Positions 7,063-44,193 of a stretch of 64,000 nucleotides of DNA are shown in pieces (within the stretch, counting starts at the first letter, position 1; the number at the start of each line of letters is the position of its first letter). The stretch is from the NCBI GenBank assembly GCA_041645215.1, contig JBAZQK010000007.1:8976-72975 (forward strand), written 5' to 3'. The notes under the pieces are model-generated. The model saw only the letters and a program-made list of their open reading frames with translations, was not told where the DNA came from and did not search any database. The position numbers and the translations under genes are program-made. Source of the stretch: Patescibacteria group bacterium (GTDB taxonomy: Bacteria > Patescibacteriota > Patescibacteriia > Veblenbacterales > UBA10138).

Positions 7063-7319
7063 TGAAATCTTTTATTGGCCTATTTTATGATGAAGTCAAA
7101 CATAAGGGCGTTAAGGTGGTCATCCAAGAAATTGATGACGACGACGTTATTAGCGCTCTAATAGAAAAACATCGTCGCGGCTACAGCGGTTTGTTAGAAA
7201 TTGAACCGTCGGAAATGGAATTCATCAAAAAACTGTCAGCCGCTGAACTTGAAAAATTTCGTAACATCATTGGCCAGTTGGCATACAAGGCCCTAAATGA
7301 TGGCAGACTTATGGCTTAA
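7063..7319 (+). CDS. Hypothetical small acidic protein. The ORF-track start is 7020; the likely start is the Met at 7063.
   Basis: An ORF followed by a terminator hairpin. No recognisable domain. Confidence 0.4.
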
Positions 7320-7414
7320 CTTTAAAAACAAACCAACGCCTCCTCCAAGTGCTGGCAACTAACCAGCACTCCCTTCTTAAGCTCACGATTAACTCGCGGT
7401 TTTAAGAAGTCACC

Positions 7415-39070: not shown

Positions 39071-39781
39071 TCATCTAATGGATAAATAATGACTACGTTG
39101 TTGGGGTGATAATTTTTCAATGGCATAACGCAGCATCGTGCGCGGCATTCGGGACGCGAATTTATCCAAAAAAACAATTTCGGTTTTTAGTGAACGCTTA
39201 CCTACCTCCCTCAGCATCCAACCCACAGCTTTATGCATTAAATCATGTTTATCTTTTAATAATAATTGAGCTAATTTTAAAGTATCAGCGTACTGACCTT
39301 GGCGAATAAAATAAAAGGTGGCCAACACGGCGATACGGCGCTCCCAAATATTTTTTGATTTAACTAGTTTATACAAAATCGCCTGCGATTTATCAACCAA
39401 ATAAGTTCCCACGATTTTTGGCGCGGTCAAATCCACTAAATCCCAATTATTAATATATTTAGTATTGGCTAAATAAAACCTAAAGATTCTCCCCTGCTCC
39501 GTCTTATGGGCTTTACCAAACCTATCAACTAAAATCAATAAAGCAGTTAGTCGCTCTTCGTGAATTTTAGAATGAAGCAACTTGTCAATCTCGCCCCAAG
39601 ATAAATTAACATATTGGCGAGCCAAACGGCGCGAATTTGGAACTATTATACCCAAAAACATATCTCCCTCGCCATATTCCCCCGGTCCGGTTTTAAAAAA
39701 CCGCTGCAAAATTTTGGCTTTTTGCGGACTAGCTAATTTTCTTAAATCAGAACGTAATTCTTGAAGCATAGGCTTAACCAT
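39071..39781 (-). CDS. DNA alkylation repair protein (AlkD-like HEAT-repeat glycosylase family)
   Basis: The N-terminus '...LASPQKAKILQRFFKTGPGEYGEGDMFLGI' is typical of the DNA_alkylation family. Confidence 0.65.
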   Translation of the reverse strand: MVKPMLQELRSDLRKLASPQKAKILQRFFKTGPGEYGEGDMFLGIIVPNSRRLARQYVNLSWGEIDKLLHSKIHEERLTALLILVDRFGKAHKTEQGRIFRFYLANTKYINNWDLVDLTAPKIVGTYLVDKSQAILYKLVKSKNIWERRIAVLATFYFIRQGQYADTLKLAQLLLKDKHDLMHKAVGWMLREVGKRSLKTEIVFLDKFASRMPRTMLRYAIEKLSPQQRSHYLSIR

Positions 39782-40272: not shown

Positions 40273-40385
40273 ACTAACTGTTTAAAATGACTAAATAATT
40301 TAATTTCATAATTTTGAACTATTCCACCATTTCCGCTAAAGACCACATGCAAATATGTAGACAGACAGGCGTACGTCTACATATT

Positions 40386-40853
40386 TTAATCTTCAGTAAT
40401 ATAACCAAGTTTCTGAAAAAATTCTCTTCCACCTGGTATCTGTTTTACAGATGGAAGTTCACTCACGCTAAACCATTGTGATTCAACGAGGTCATCACCA
40501 AGTTGTAATCTAATTTCATCGGCCATTTTGTTGTGGATAACAATCCTAAACCTATGGAACTCCATGCGGCAAAGGACTTTTTCCTCTGTGTCCTTGAAAA
40601 TTTTTTCAGCGACATCAGTGTCAACATAAGGTAGCGGCTCTAGAGTATAGGGGGTGATATCTATACCTACCTCTTCACGAACCTCTCGTTTTAAAGCCTC
40701 CTCAAACGACTGGCCACTCTCAACGCCCCCACCCGGAATATGCCAACAGTCAGAATAAACACCACCTTTAATTGGATCTTTTCTACCCATCAACACTTTG
40801 TTGTCTTTGCTAAAAATTAGAGCAGAGACTATGGTTCGGTGTATTTCACGCAT
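40386..40853 (-). CDS. NUDIX hydrolase
   Basis: Nudix box 'GGGVESGQSFEEALKREVREEVGI'. Confidence 0.88.
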   Translation of the reverse strand: MREIHRTIVSALIFSKDNKVLMGRKDPIKGGVYSDCWHIPGGGVESGQSFEEALKREVREEVGIDITPYTLEPLPYVDTDVAEKIFKDTEEKVLCRMEFHRFRIVIHNKMADEIRLQLGDDLVESQWFSVSELPSVKQIPGGREFFQKLGYITED

Positions 40854-40865
40854 AAATATATGTTT

Positions 40866-41579
40866 TTAGGCTACCGACAAATCAATTTCGGGTTGTTTTT
40901 CATCAAGAATTTTATAAGAAATATTTCCGCCACAAAATTTTTGGACTAAATCTTTTAGCTCCTTTGTAGCATTTTCTATTTCTTGTTTTGTCACCGGCAG
41001 AAGCCCCTCTATAACCAGAAAACAATTTTTTGTTTCTTCTGTAAACTTTGTCCTATCAGCTTCACGCCAATTCCACCGGCGACAAATTGCGGAAATATCG
41101 TCTTTGTAAATAACTTCCCCGGCGTGAGGCGGCCGGGGCTCTTTATCCCCCAGCAGTAAAACCGCCGGTTCATTTGGTTCTGCCAAAGTTAAAATGACAT
41201 CGCCTTGAATTTTATCCATGTTCTCACCACCAACAGGAACCATATGTTTAAGGGAAATGAGATTATAAATATCCACCAACTTATTAATATGTCTCAAATT
41301 TATTCCTTGCAAAATCAACCTATAAAGATTTTCAACCGAGGATTTATTTTCTTTCGATTTGGCTCCGAAAGCAGCATAAGTTTTTCTCCAGACGTCAATT
41401 CTGGGAGTTTGGGACAAAGTTTCAGTGTTATATTTTTCTCTGATATTACTTTCTTGTATTCTGATATCTTTTTGGACTTCTTCCTGTGTTCCAGAATTAT
41501 CAAGATTCTTACAGACGACAACTCCTACTGTTAAACCGGGAAACTTCTCAAATATTTTGTGGTCAATTTTGAATTTCAT
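40866..41579 (-). CDS. B3/4 domain protein (tRNA-binding domain of the PheT editing type)
   Basis: Size about 237 aa. 'WRKTYAAFGAKSK...ENLYRLILQG...NLISLKHMVPVGGENMD' fits the B3_4 family. Confidence 0.55.
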   Translation of the reverse strand: MKFKIDHKIFEKFPGLTVGVVVCKNLDNSGTQEEVQKDIRIQESNIREKYNTETLSQTPRIDVWRKTYAAFGAKSKENKSSVENLYRLILQGINLRHINKLVDIYNLISLKHMVPVGGENMDKIQGDVILTLAEPNEPAVLLLGDKEPRPPHAGEVIYKDDISAICRRWNWREADRTKFTEETKNCFLVIEGLLPVTKQEIENATKELKDLVQKFCGGNISYKILDEKQPEIDLSVA

Positions 41580-41624
41580 AGGTATTTAATTAAAAATTTT
41601 GTGGCGGATTTAATAATAAATAGC

Positions 41625-42128
41625 CTATGCTGTACTCTGTAAAAAATAATTATCCTTAAATTCATCCCAACTTGTTTCTCTGCCCGGGTAAGCCACGCTA
41701 TCAAACGGCCATTTCTCCTTAATCCAATTTTTAACAGTGATAAATAAATATTTATCTAGCCCATTTGCCAATTCATCCTTTCTTACCCAAGCAATAACTA
41801 CTACGTCATATTTTACATTTGTGCTGGGCATAATGTACACGCAGCCCAAACATCTTGTTTCATCGAGGTTCATGACGGTGTAAGTAAAGGACGTTCGTTT
41901 TTGAAACTCCTCCTGATGAAAACGGAGGTCGTTTAAATCCTGCTCAAGAGTTAAATCTTTCTGCGGCCAGCGGTCAAAAGGCCCAAATACGCACTGAAGA
42001 TGTTCCAAACTTGTGATGACGGCTTCATAATCTTTCGTAAGGTCATCAATGGTAAGCATTCTCAACCGTATTCTGTCTGTTTCTAATTTTTTAGGAACTT
42101 GAAAACTATCTGGGATGAACTTTTTCAT
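41625..42128 (-). CDS. GNAT-family N-acetyltransferase
   Basis: 167 aa. 'RIRLRMLTIDDL' N-terminus and RimL-like architecture. Confidence 0.55.
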   Translation of the reverse strand: MKKFIPDSFQVPKKLETDRIRLRMLTIDDLTKDYEAVITSLEHLQCVFGPFDRWPQKDLTLEQDLNDLRFHQEEFQKRTSFTYTVMNLDETRCLGCVYIMPSTNVKYDVVVIAWVRKDELANGLDKYLFITVKNWIKEKWPFDSVAYPGRETSWDEFKDNYFLQSTA

Positions 42129-42172
42129 AATTATTTTCTATGCCGTGTTAGGCGATGTAAAATTTTTACGTT

Positions 42173-42844
42173 TTATATATTGCAATTAAATATTTTACCA
42201 GTTTTATGGTCGAATCTTGGAACGATATCATATGTATTTAATTTTAAGGCAAATTCCAAATCATCTTTCTGATTTAGTGTTCTGAGGCGGTTTGCCCCGT
42301 CAGATTGAAGGATTTGATTTTTTATTTGGTCAAAATTAATTTTTAAATTTTTTAATCCTGCTTCTATATATTTTGCACATTCTTCATCTTCTACTGCTGG
42401 CTCGGTGGTGTTACAACCTACAGCTAGCAAGCTTACTTGTGCTGGTTTTTTATTCTTAATATAGTCAATAATTGCTTGCGAATTAGCAAAACTGCCAATT
42501 AATATTTCGTCAGCAAGGGTTGCGTTAACAATGCATTGAGAGCCAGCAGACGTTGTAATAATAATTTTTTTATCTCTCAAATTTAATTTTGTTGCTTTGG
42601 CAGGCGAATTATCATAATCAAATCCTTCTAGGGGCAAACCGCCTCTTTCGCCAAAAAGCAAATGATTTGGATTTTCTTTTTTAAGTTGATAGGCTTTTTC
42701 TAGTGCACCGACTGGTAAAATATATTCAGCTCCACTGGCCAGACAGCTAATTATCGTATTGCTAGCTCTAAATACGTCAATAACCACAGTTATGCCGTTA
42801 GCAATTTTGGCGCCCTTTAAACATTCGTAAATATTTATATTCAT
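42173..42844 (-). CDS. 2-phosphosulfolactate phosphatase (ComB) family protein
   Basis: 'VVIDVFRASNTI' N-terminal signature and 'SAGSQC'. Confidence 0.6.
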   Translation of the reverse strand: MNINIYECLKGAKIANGITVVIDVFRASNTIISCLASGAEYILPVGALEKAYQLKKENPNHLLFGERGGLPLEGFDYDNSPAKATKLNLRDKKIIITTSAGSQCIVNATLADEILIGSFANSQAIIDYIKNKKPAQVSLLAVGCNTTEPAVEDEECAKYIEAGLKNLKINFDQIKNQILQSDGANRLRTLNQKDDLEFALKLNTYDIVPRFDHKTGKIFNCNI

Positions 42845-43040
42845 AATGCATAGTAAAAATTTTATTTCGCCTAACGTTAGGGATATACGAAGTTTTTCTG
42901 TAGCGTAGCGGAAGAAAAATTTGGGTGAGGGGCGAGCCGAGCCCCGAATCGCATACGCTGTGTTAGCTGACCCGAGCTGTAGCGTAGTGGAGGCGAGAGC
43001 GCAGCGTGGCTTGAGTTCATTTCAAAAATTACTTTTCTCT

Positions 43041-43541
43041 TCAACCAAAAGCCTTTTGTTCCTCTTTTAATACAATATCATGCGCTTCATGTAAAGAAAA
43101 ACTTTGGTCTCGTAGATTAGCCTCCAATATTTCATGGAACAGAATTCTTCTTCTGTCCGATTCAGGTATTGTGTCATGTAGATAAATATCATAACCTCTG
43201 ACGTATGTAGATGCGAAATATTCTGCTGATTTACCAAATTTAGCCAGTTTTCCTTCAGCTTCAGCTTTTGCCAATCTACCTGCTTTAGTAATGTTTATAT
43301 AGAATTCTGTTCCATTGAACGTAAATCTGTACCCTTGTTCCCATTTGATGCTGTCTAGTAGAGCCAAAAGTTCTTCCGTTTTTAGTTCTGGTTGTCGAAT
43401 TATTTCTCGGTTTTCCATAAATTTAGAAAAGTAATTTTTTAAATGAATTTCGTCTAACTCGTTTTTATGCGACGTGTTTGGTGAATAATATACGCATTGT
43501 TGTATATTATGCGAAATTGTAATATTATCGACCCATATCAC
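43041..43541 (-). CDS. Hypothetical protein
   Basis: ORF in the low-GC island with no recognised domain. A 'HEILE...HEAHD' motif is noted. Confidence 0.35.
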   Translation of the reverse strand: MIWVDNITISHNIQQCVYYSPNTSHKNELDEIHLKNYFSKFMENREIIRQPELKTEELLALLDSIKWEQGYRFTFNGTEFYINITKAGRLAKAEAEGKLAKFGKSAEYFASTYVRGYDIYLHDTIPESDRRRILFHEILEANLRDQSFSLHEAHDIVLKEEQKAFG

Positions 43542-43818
43542 AGTTTATTAAATTATAGCAAAGTTTTATGAATTTAAAAGAGCTTTTGGGAAAAATATTT
43601 AAGGTCAAGTATAAAACCGTACTTACTTAAATCAACCATTGGTTCATGGTTTTCTTGAATTTCAATTGAAGTGTATTTTACTAAGGTCATACGACAAAAC
43701 TGGCTTGATTTTTGTTTAATTTAACTTAACGTTTGTGAATACTTAAAATCTGCCATGCACAAATTATTGTAAAGTATAGACAAACAGATATTCGCTATTA
43801 CTGAGTGTAACAAAAATT

Positions 43819-44169
43819 TTACTCAATTATTCTACCTCCAGTTTGTTCTATCATTTCTCTTAACGCCTGCATCATTTTTTCTTTATCATCAGAACCTTTA
43901 TTTAGAATTTTGCTAGGTCCATGAATAACATAGCGATCAAAATTACGTAGATCATCTGAAATTTGAGCTATCTTATAGATTGTACCATCTTCTATAATAG
44001 TAACTACATCTCCATTTATATTTTTAAATCCGTTGGCAGTCTTGCGAAAAGAGATTTTAGCTAATTCAGAAACTTCCTTGGAAAGTTTTTCTAACTCCGC
44101 AAAACTTAGTTTAGCAACTTCAATTTTTTTTGGATTCTCTGGTTGATCGGCTGATGATAATTCATGCAT
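43819..44169 (-). CDS. Hypothetical protein
   Basis: ORF in the low-GC island with no recognised domain. Confidence 0.35.
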   Translation of the reverse strand: MHELSSADQPENPKKIEVAKLSFAELEKLSKEVSELAKISFRKTANGFKNINGDVVTIIEDGTIYKIAQISDDLRNFDRYVIHGPSKILNKGSDDKEKMMQALREMIEQTGGRIIE

Positions 44170-44193
44170 ATTATTGTTAATTAGATTAAAAAT

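Follow-up and report, generated by a model that had tools for sequence, protein, structure and literature searches.

A low-GC island between dsbB and ahcY of a Patescibacteria chromosome is probably a gene-flux mosaic with a putative relic attC-like site

The window analysed here is a stretch of 64,000 nucleotides from a Patescibacteria group bacterium (GCA_041645215.1, contig JBAZQK010000007.1). The present study deals with a low-GC island at positions 40273-44193 of this window, which lies between dsbB and ahcY and codes for a NUDIX hydrolase, a standalone B3/4 protein, a GNAT-like protein, a ComB-like protein and two proteins of no recognised function; a GC-rich element separates the ComB-like gene from one of the latter. 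The GC content of the island is 35.3% as compared to 45.7% in the rest of the window, the minimum among 601 sliding windows of 3.9 kb (mean 45.2%, standard deviation (sd) 3.1%). A first-pass annotation of this DNA had described a sharp fall in GC content at both flanks. The fall is real and the edge on the ahcY side, at about 44190, is a sharp step, but the edge on the dsbB side is gradual, with the GC content already at 37-43% between 38.5 and 40.3 kb. The GC content at third codon positions (GC3) splits the island genes into two tiers. The ComB-like gene (0.241), a 166-aa open reading frame (ORF) at 43041-43541 (0.251) and a 116-aa ORF (0.188) lie about 3 sd below the median per gene of the window (0.486, sd 0.083), whereas the NUDIX (0.346), B3/4 (0.324) and GNAT-like (0.399) genes lie about 1-2 sd below it and are comparable to some genes outside the island, for example the DNA-alkylation repair gene (0.354).

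All six annotated minus-strand ORFs of the island are present (Table 1). Their compact arrangement holds at four junctions of 12-45 nt and is broken by gaps of 196 nt and 277 nt. In the gene list itself, the 166-aa ORF had been over-extended, since the public gene call as well as its homologues indicate a product of 125 aa, and a remnant of a peptidase-M15 gene had been overlooked. The NUDIX, B3/4 and ComB-like calls were borne out by Pfam (B3_4 at 2.5e-26; the ComB match is to 2-ph_phosp), and the flanking genes matched DsbB, AdoHcyase, HIT and DNA_alkylation. PADLOC and PHROGs scans of the six island proteins returned generic NUDIX matches only.

Table 1. Features of the low-GC island (positions of the window)
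Feature	Position	Strand	Basis or remark
NUDIX hydrolase, 155 aa	40386..40853	-	Pfam NUDIX 2e-18; older resident block
Standalone B3/4 protein, 237 aa, predicted CtdA-type aminoacyl-tRNA deacylase (trans-editing factor)	40866..41579	-	Pfam B3_4, PDB matches
GNAT-fold protein, 167 aa, uncharacterised and widely scattered family	41625..42128	-	AF2 model and Foldseek
R''-L''-like half-site CTAACACGGCATAG	42138..42151	-	One mismatch to the family pattern
1.44-kb replacement block (125-aa gene, attC-like element, ComB)	42151..43591	-	blastn against L004
ComB-like protein (2-phosphosulfolactate phosphatase family), 223 aa	42173..42844	-	PF04029 2e-49; recent insertion
Core of attC-like site, decayed copy	42869..42968	-	Covariance model, nhmmer
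5' extension of the GC-rich element, second copy of a hairpin-loop motif	42969..43012	-	Aligns with the extensions of other loci
125-aa protein, function not recognised; ORF continues to 43541	43041..43418	-	Homologues and public gene call; recent insertion
Peptidase-M15 remnant, first 37 codons	43580..43690	-	tblastn against L004
116-aa protein, no recognised function	43819..44169	-	GC3 is the minimum of the window; not in the L004 spacer

The nearest syntenic relatives of the window are GCA_040960375.1 (L004; the L numbers denote loci) and the Candidatus Kerfeldbacteria metagenome-assembled genome (MAG) GCA_016234305.1 (L216). The gene order in L004 is ahcY-pepM15-GNAT-B3/4-NUDIX'-HTH-dsbB-DNA_alkylation (HTH, helix-turn-helix), after which come the sugar-nucleotide genes that are also seen in the window; in L216 the order is GNAT-45 nt-B3/4-NUDIX-NUDIX-HTH-dsbB. 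The orthologues in these relatives are identical to the window proteins at 81-83% of amino acids for GNAT-like and 83-88% for B3/4; the NUDIX protein of L216 is 87% identical, and L004 has another NUDIX in the same slot. The flanking genes give 84% for AhcY, 72-75% for DNA_alkylation and 62-66% for DsbB. Since the GNAT-B3/4 pair is syntenic in the relatives at 81-88% identity, and since the NUDIX gene is common to L216, these genes are resident in the lineage. The GNAT-like, B3/4 and NUDIX genes thus form an older resident block, conserved on par with its housekeeping neighbours. The annotation had named a syntenic island with housekeeping-like conservation as something that would speak against its proposal, and this is what is found for one part of the island, the GNAT-B3/4 adjacency of the three MAGs. 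In L004 the GNAT-like and B3/4 genes are parted by a GC-rich insert of 232 nt (1653-1884), which has several GC hairpins and no counterpart in the window; it matched neither Rfam nor the attC covariance model described below.

The right part of the island has a different history. The peptidase-M15 remnant, read from 43690 to 43580, matches L004 456-1130 at 70% identity (tblastn, E 2e-12), and this stretch of L004 is an intact gene with a Pfam Peptidase_M15 match. It was found by blastn that the nucleotide homology between L004 and the window breaks off at about 43592 and returns at about 42150, 22 nt before the GNAT-like start, where it picks up exactly at TAAC of the right breakpoint. L004 554 to 1118 has no counterpart in the window, so that 563 bp of the peptidase-M15 gene have been replaced, and ComB is missing at the corresponding position of L004. 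A truncated gene cannot be ancestral, and the window is therefore the derived state, in which most of a resident peptidase-M15 gene has given way to a 1.44-kb block whose composition is foreign. Together with the foreign GC3 and the attC-like site, the comparison with L004 argues that this right block was acquired horizontally. Horizontal acquisition, which the first-pass annotation had proposed for the island as a whole, is thus supported for the 1.44-kb block. Further to the right, the spacer between ahcY and pepM15 is 140 nt in L004 as compared to 504 nt in the window, where the 116-aa ORF is found, and on the other side the HTH gene and the second NUDIX of the relatives are missing from the window. 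These gains and losses among the window, L004 and L216 mark the ahcY-dsbB interval as a hotspot of gene gain and loss.

The 196-nt gap within the replacement block holds the GC-rich element, which had been annotated as structured and as carrying direct repeats. The repeats are located as described (42898-42914 and 42977-42993) and have no further copy within the window, but the stability of the single sequence is not unusual: its fold gave z = -1.8 on the plus strand and +0.4 on the minus strand, neither of which is significant. Rfam returned no match on the whole window at the gathering threshold or on 42700-43200 at E<=10, and these null results rule the element out as a known riboswitch or other known RNA. 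Homologues of the spacer were found by blastn and nhmmer with 75-77% identity across about 150 nt. The first of them adjoin GNAT-like genes in unrelated MAGs, namely L034 (a gammaproteobacterium), L016 (a Parcubacteria bacterium, in which the gene has a copy on either side) and L015 (an unclassified bacterium), and their orientation relative to the GNAT-like gene is uniform. A profile search added copies in L031, L007, L011 and L008, and a metagenome search with a degenerate pattern from the 3' half of the element gave at least 120 loci (L090-L209), with 221 profile matches among the 120 metagenomic loci listed.

The organisation of these loci is that of an array. Two to six sites, spaced 0.4-2.5 kb apart, are carried by 57 of the at least 120 loci, and in all but one of these 57 multi-copy loci all the sites are co-oriented. 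The interval from site to site has a median of 781 bp; its longest ORF is co-oriented with the sites in 79 intervals and opposite in 7. The ORFs between the sites are varied and include HIT, NUDIX, MazG-like, SMR, HAD, methyltransferase, PNPOx and HD proteins. A box of the RYYYAAC type and, about 100 nt further 3', one of the GTTRRRY type bound each element of the family. Folded with DNA parameters, well-preserved copies show two inner hairpins besides an L stem and an outer R stem, with energies of -15 to -21 kcal/mol. When five sequences aligned by MAFFT were given to RNAalifold, one hairpin only had come out; the structure was then set by hand and tested by a covariance model and by covariation. 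The model with the R stem, L stem and two hairpins found 152 sites in 64 loci. Among 147 distinct copies, 83.9% of the cells pair as compared to 63% with shuffled partners and about 40% with slid partners. Compensatory changes were seen in 27 of 30 pairs overall and in all 11 pairs of the L stem, where 89% of the cells pair, and the AAC and GTT ends are near-invariant.

A full-length IntI1-like recombinase was found in 11 of the 120 loci listed (E 1e-35 to 1e-42), with an IntI1 sequence that served as a probe only. In 11/11 of these loci the recombinase gene is found upstream of the array, with its transcription directed away from the sites. Among the NCBIfam families, TIGR02249 (integron integrase) and NF040815 (XerA/integron integrase) took the first two ranks, now one and now the other leading, for the five recombinases scanned, above XerC and XerD. 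Examples of arrays with a recombinase are L113 94-5923, L196 4996-7726 and L157 17-2566; the recombinase retains a C-terminal SPLDxL motif. A decayed element of integron-like form was also noticed in L016, where a three-site array with a GNAT-like cassette has upstream of it, in divergent orientation, a 59-aa fragment of the same IntI-like recombinase (7200-7379, minus strand), beside housekeeping genes which from their translations were read as mnmA and lepA. The arrays, the boxes, the covariation and the divergent IntI-like recombinases together argue that the element is an attC-like recombination site. Judged by its sequence, the GC-rich element of the window belongs to this large family, and the term integron attC is applied to the family by analogy.

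The copy in the window is decayed. On the minus strand its R boxes are R'' AGCTAAC (42962-42968) and R' GTTAGGC (42869-42875), which match the RYYYAAC and GTTRRRY types. The covariance-model match scores 88 bits, a value to be read with the caveat that the window copy belonged to the seed of the model, and nhmmer with the family profile matched 43012-42862 at 4.6e-38. The R boxes survive, as do the two inner hairpins, but the L stem is missing from the minimum-energy fold (-11.8 kcal/mol), and by hand alignment at most 6 of its 8 positions can pair. Pairing of L'' with L', which is expected of an attC site, is thus seen in the family and lacking in the window copy. The ATG of ComB lies 24 nt past the R' heptamer, which is the customary layout of a cassette. 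The lost complementarity of the L stem, the presence of a single copy in the window and the want of a recombinase gene suggest that the site would now be an inactive relic. As its 5' half resembles the type of L034 and L015 and its 3' half the upstream copy of L016, the window copy may be a chimera that arose by recombination between two adjacent sites. An extension of about 45 nt upstream of R'' contains the second of the two annotated direct repeats, which copies the loop motif (YCCRCTACGYTAC) from the second inner hairpin. This extension aligns with L016, L034, L031, L007 and a metagenomic subset that matches positions 2-40 of the hidden Markov model (HMM); it may have arisen by partial duplication or serve as a binding site for an accessory protein.

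A half-site, CTAACACGGCATAG, lies between the stop of ComB and the start of the GNAT-like gene and coincides with the right breakpoint. Thirteen of its bases exactly match the 5' half of the L015 attC. It was noticed post hoc and its L004 counterpart is partly homologous, so that its reading as an R''-L'' remnant is suggestive only. A search for further attC relics in the 277-nt and 113-nt gaps and in the 45-nt spacers gave none.

The position of the element directly upstream of ComB, in the sense orientation, and the conserved covarying helices would also suit a cis-regulatory RNA, that is, a riboswitch or leader that controls a ComB-GNAT-B3/4 operon, and it should be noted that CtdA genes and a canavanine GNAT are associated with guanidine riboswitches in other organisms. 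We nevertheless regard this explanation as most improbable. Rfam was silent even at the permissive threshold, copies of the element stand on both sides of genes and recur at the array spacing between unrelated genes, and every recombinase-bearing locus shows the integron layout. In addition, the conserved AAC/GTT ends match a recombination core site, and the main stem is not formed in the minimum-energy fold of the window copy.

Taken together, we consider it quite probable that the island is a gene-flux mosaic of cassette-pool genes, which includes a replacement block and a relic attC-like site, and that it is not one functional system. The interval from ahcY to dsbB would then be a hotspot of gene flux in a Patescibacteria (Kerfeldbacteria-like) chromosome, and its genes would come from a pool of cassettes common to the Candidate Phyla Radiation (CPR) bacteria and the DPANN archaea, from which they would have arrived as recombinase-mobilised cassettes. 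The GNAT-like, B3/4 and NUDIX genes were the resident block, and the 1.44-kb block came later at the cost of the peptidase-M15 gene. The genes of the island would act independently of each other.

Several observations weigh against this reading. The window has one covariance-model attC match and a doubtful half-site, which is no array, and no recombinase gene was found in its 64 kb. There is no attC remnant in the 12-45 nt spacers of GNAT, B3/4 and NUDIX, and the cassette origin of these three genes would here be deduced solely from other loci; about 75 of the 81 GNAT-like loci are without a detectable attC. The synteny comparison consists of two relatives only, and the contig of L216 ends at the GNAT gene. 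The alignment used for covariation had been fitted to the structure of the model, a circumstance in favour of that structure, although both controls are exceeded by a large margin. Finally, the recombinases score under the cutoff of TIGR02249, and these proteins of about 270 aa are without the IntI-specific additional domain, residues of about 195-245 of IntI1 being aligned to a gap.

The known systems closest to the family are the integron cassettes, including single attC sites or clusters of attC sites lacking integron integrases (CALIN), and the archaeal integrons (Ghaly et al. 2022, PMC9668308). The family has in common with them sites of about 100 nt that have RYYYAAC/GTTRRRY ends and whose hairpin keeps its structure but not its sequence, co-oriented arrays in which each unit carries about one gene without a promoter, and a recombinase that is upstream and divergent. 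The content of the cassettes is likewise varied, and near-identical cassettes are found in bacteria and archaea. It differs from them in its recombinases, which do not have the additional domain that defines integron integrases and that the archaeal integron integrases described so far possess (PMC9668308). It also differs in the branched two-hairpin interior of its sites, in their conserved CCCAWATTT linker and in the 45-nt 5' extension of a subset. The window is different again in having one decayed site and no recombinase. In the literature searched, nothing specific was found on integrons in CPR bacteria, and no description was found of a recombinase lineage that lacks the domain. It is possible, though the balance is somewhat against it, that the attC-like family and the recombinase of about 270 aa represent an integron lineage of their own within the CPR bacteria and DPANN archaea, which would shuttle small housecleaning and translation-fidelity genes between the domains, and that the island in the window is a domesticated, decayed array of this kind. 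The cassette contents behind this idea are the CtdA deacylase, the GNAT-fold protein, NUDIX, HIT, MazG-like and HAD.

The B3/4 protein, whose exact sequence is also present on an ENA metagenome contig and on a short Logan contig, has Pfam B3_4 as its sole domain, and its best matches in the PDB by phmmer were 9mkl (2.6e-26) and 9f7e, the canavanyl-tRNA deacylase CtdA (1.4e-25). The structure of Salmonella enterica CtdA was solved in a 2025 study (PMC12449066), and 9mkl is taken here as that protein, in which the published residues are present at an offset of two. The pocket residues of CtdA are N105, G116, E118, C166, Q173 and I189, of which N105, G116, C166 and Q173 matter for activity or specificity (PMC12449066). 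In the window protein the N, G, E and C are identical, Q173 is changed to E and I189 to V, and no variation was seen at N106, G117, E119, C166 and E173 across 24 proteins of its clade. An E at 173 is also found in the active CtdA of Clostridium perfringens (PMC12449066), and since the Cys is present the protein is of the CtdA-1 type and not of the CtdA-2 type. On the strength of these likenesses, which include the standalone form of about 235 aa (9f7e and 9mkl; PMC10018355, PMC12449066), the B3/4 protein is predicted to be a CtdA-type standalone aminoacyl-tRNA deacylase that acts in trans editing. It would hydrolyse mischarged aminoacyl-tRNA of the canavanyl-tRNA(Arg) kind. The first-pass link of this protein to charged tRNA is thus supported, as it belongs to a family that acts on such tRNA, with a CtdA match at E of about 1e-26.

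It differs from the known CtdA proteins, apart from the I189 change, in that its clade is restricted to CPR bacteria and DPANN archaea, outside the phyla listed for CtdA. This clade is tight (70-90% identity) and consists of Patescibacteria and of archaea which NCBI labels as Woesearchaeota, Micrarchaeota and Diapherotrites, and its close members, at 70-89% identity to the window protein, stand in unrelated neighbourhoods. In L217 (GCA_053534895.1, 4141-5700) a B3/4 gene whose product is 88% identical to that of the window has attC-family sites on both sides, on a contig that carries an archaeal-type ribosomal protein L35Ae gene and is apparently archaeal. Going by these flanking sites the B3/4 gene of L217 is a cassette, and the 88% identity would imply a recent transfer across domains. 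A tyrosine recombinase of 500 aa lies downstream of this cassette on the opposite strand (L217 8790-10292).

The GNAT-like protein gave no match to Pfam or NCBIfam even at E<=10, and a profile search of the PDB with its family gave nothing significant. Its AlphaFold2 (AF2) model, built on 28 homologues, has a pLDDT of 88.6, and the best Foldseek matches among the 50 listed were GNATs of the RimJ/RimL/YdaF/MccE type (TM 0.57-0.66, about 13% identity). The GNAT call of the first-pass annotation therefore survives at the level of the modelled fold only. The structural matches closest to it (2fck, 3juw, 1nsl, 3igr and 3r95) are Acetyltransf_3-like GNATs, and we read its N-terminal motif as similar to strand one of these proteins. 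It differs from them in its low identity, in the want of an HMM match and in its own invariant motifs, CLGC, WVR and PGR, and the model seems to be short of the C-terminal part of the canonical GNAT core. No orthology to RimI, RimJ or RimL was indicated by any NCBIfam family at E<=1.

The GNAT-like family has at least 528 homologues at about 55-65% identity, which are spread over Patescibacteria, DPANN archaea, Cyanobacteria, Bacteroidota, Chloroflexi and others. In six loci (L015, L016, L034, L031, L007 and L116) the gene is a single-gene cassette with flanking attC-family sites. A strict detector, which combined a regular expression with folding, found 2 attC sites downstream of 81 GNAT-like genes, and it is not claimed that most members of the family are cassettes. 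In an Aenigmatarchaeota MAG (L017 2127-3462) a DNA-alkylation-repair homologue, 58.7% identical to the window gene at 39071-39781, adjoins a GNAT-like gene; this could be a hint of a gene pool common to CPR and DPANN, or a binning error. A signal-peptide-like N-terminal extension was seen in the homologues P0042, P0051 and P0118 (189-192 aa; alignment A1, columns 1-30). Such N-termini are odd for an enzyme that depends on acetyl-CoA and raise doubt about the acetyltransferase activity of the family. The GNAT-fold protein is probably an acyltransferase.

From the adjacency of the two genes it had been suggested, as a speculation, that the island could be a tRNA-directed toxin/immunity or stress module; in such a module the GNAT would acetylate aminoacyl-tRNA in the manner of TacT or AtaT, and B3/4 would be its immunity factor, antidote or specificity partner. 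A GNAT fold is indeed present, the protein is small, the neighbour is from a family that deacylates aminoacyl-tRNA, and the two genes are 45 nt apart with their adjacency kept in three related MAGs. This likeness to the type II GNAT toxins TacT, AtaT and ItaT does not extend further. The window protein has no similarity to acetyltransferases at the HMM level and no PADLOC match, and neither TacT nor AtaT is among the 50 folds listed. No small ORF of the ribbon-helix-helix (RHH) or DUF1778 antitoxin type lies beside the GNAT-like gene, whose neighbours are ComB and B3/4, and a cognate antitoxin or a conserved two-gene unit is lacking. When the ORFs within 1.5 kb of 81 GNAT-like genes were clustered, no family occurred in more than 11 loci, and the recurring ones reflect cyanobacterial synteny. 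The adjacency of GNAT and B3/4 was seen only in the three MAGs of one lineage (the window, L004 and L216): in 0 of 80 other species-representative genomes retrieved with the GNAT-like family did B3/4 lie within 10 kb, and the five other loci that carry close homologues of B3/4 (L086-L089, L217) were all without a GNAT-like gene. Each gene is also found alone as a single cassette, and the signal-peptide-like N-termini of some homologues are unlike a cytoplasmic toxin. A toxin/immunity module is therefore very unlikely here, and the search for its co-occurrence elsewhere went against the proposal.

A milder functional link could be a detoxification pair specific to this lineage, in which CtdA would strip a non-proteinogenic amino acid from tRNA and the GNAT-fold enzyme would acetylate the freed analogue and so block its recharging. 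This would be analogous to the canavanine-acetylating LcGNAT, which has been proposed to serve the same end as CtdA (PMC10416765), and it would agree with the conserved CtdA pocket and with the 45-nt spacer that is kept between the window and L216. We still consider it unlikely. The pairing is confined to one lineage while each gene is far more often alone, and in L004 they are kept apart by the GC-rich insert. A relation of the GNAT-like family to the polyamine acetyltransferases of the LcGNAT type is lacking at the level of HMMs, and the model stops soon after the strand at about 145-151, so that by our reading part of the C-terminal GNAT core may be missing.

It is known that tRNA deacylases can mark gene clusters for non-canonical amino acids (PMC13149037). 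By this token, the island might be a biosynthetic or self-resistance cluster for such an amino acid in which the tRNA deacylase would mark the resistance, a role that has been proposed for deacylases of the AlaX type, and a phosphatase, a protein of acyltransferase fold and a NUDIX are indeed close by. This can be given hardly any credence, as the ComB and 125-aa genes were recently inserted and are missing in the relatives, the B3/4 homologues stand in unrelated contexts, and a core biosynthetic enzyme is absent.

The ComB-like protein is a divergent member of PF04029 (E 2.1e-49 over residues 9-212), below all the equivalog cutoffs of NCBIfam (best 134 bits as compared to 235). Its presence outside coenzyme-M producers had been called unexpected. 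The PF04029 proteins in the PDB include one with the Thermus locus tag TTHA1438, and we take the hosts of this and of the other two PDB matches to be bacteria without coenzyme-M synthesis; the gene is for this reason unsurprising here. By our reading, none of ten flanking genes has a Pfam match to an enzyme of the coenzyme-M pathway, no search aimed at comA, comC or comDE having been made. The NUDIX protein reaches no NCBIfam equivalog; NudI, which comes closest, scores 54 bits where 95 are required. Both NUDIX and ComB would be small-molecule phosphohydrolases.

The 125-aa protein has 14 homologues only among 5.8 billion sequences, all of which align to the C-terminal 75% of the 166-aa ORF. 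They lie in contigs of 33-35% GC, in varied and unrelated contexts with no attC nearby, and have the motifs DIYLHDT and LFHEILE invariant. The AF2 model (pLDDT 93.3) has no significant fold match in the PDB, with faint hints only to IrrE/PprI and MMP metalloproteases (E >0.1). The protein may be a small metal-dependent hydrolase. Viral relatives were found neither for it nor for the ComB-like protein. The family of the 116-aa protein comprises 63 clusters of about 110-120 aa. Promoter-like sites were slightly above those of shuffled sequences (25 as compared to 17.0, sd 4.7), and the terminator scan gave no enrichment of terminator-like sites over expectation. The scan flagged on both strands a perfect 7-bp inverted repeat made of G and C only, CCCCGGC...GCCGGGG, at 41117-41138 within the B3/4 coding sequence, which is probably a coincidence of the codons there.

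For the window itself the result is mainly corrective, as a toxin/immunity story is replaced by documented gene flux of the cassette type, in a case that includes a resident gene destroyed by insertion and a predicted tRNA-proofreading enzyme of the CtdA type in ultra-small bacteria. The wider lead is an abundant family of putative recombination sites in groundwater-type metagenomes of CPR and DPANN organisms, with an unusually short IntI-like recombinase and with near-identical cassettes, such as B3/4 at 88% aa identity, on bacterial and archaeal contigs. If this recombinase is active, the definition of the integron would have to be broadened, and it would provide a mechanism for the sharing of genes between CPR bacteria and DPANN archaea that is seen here.

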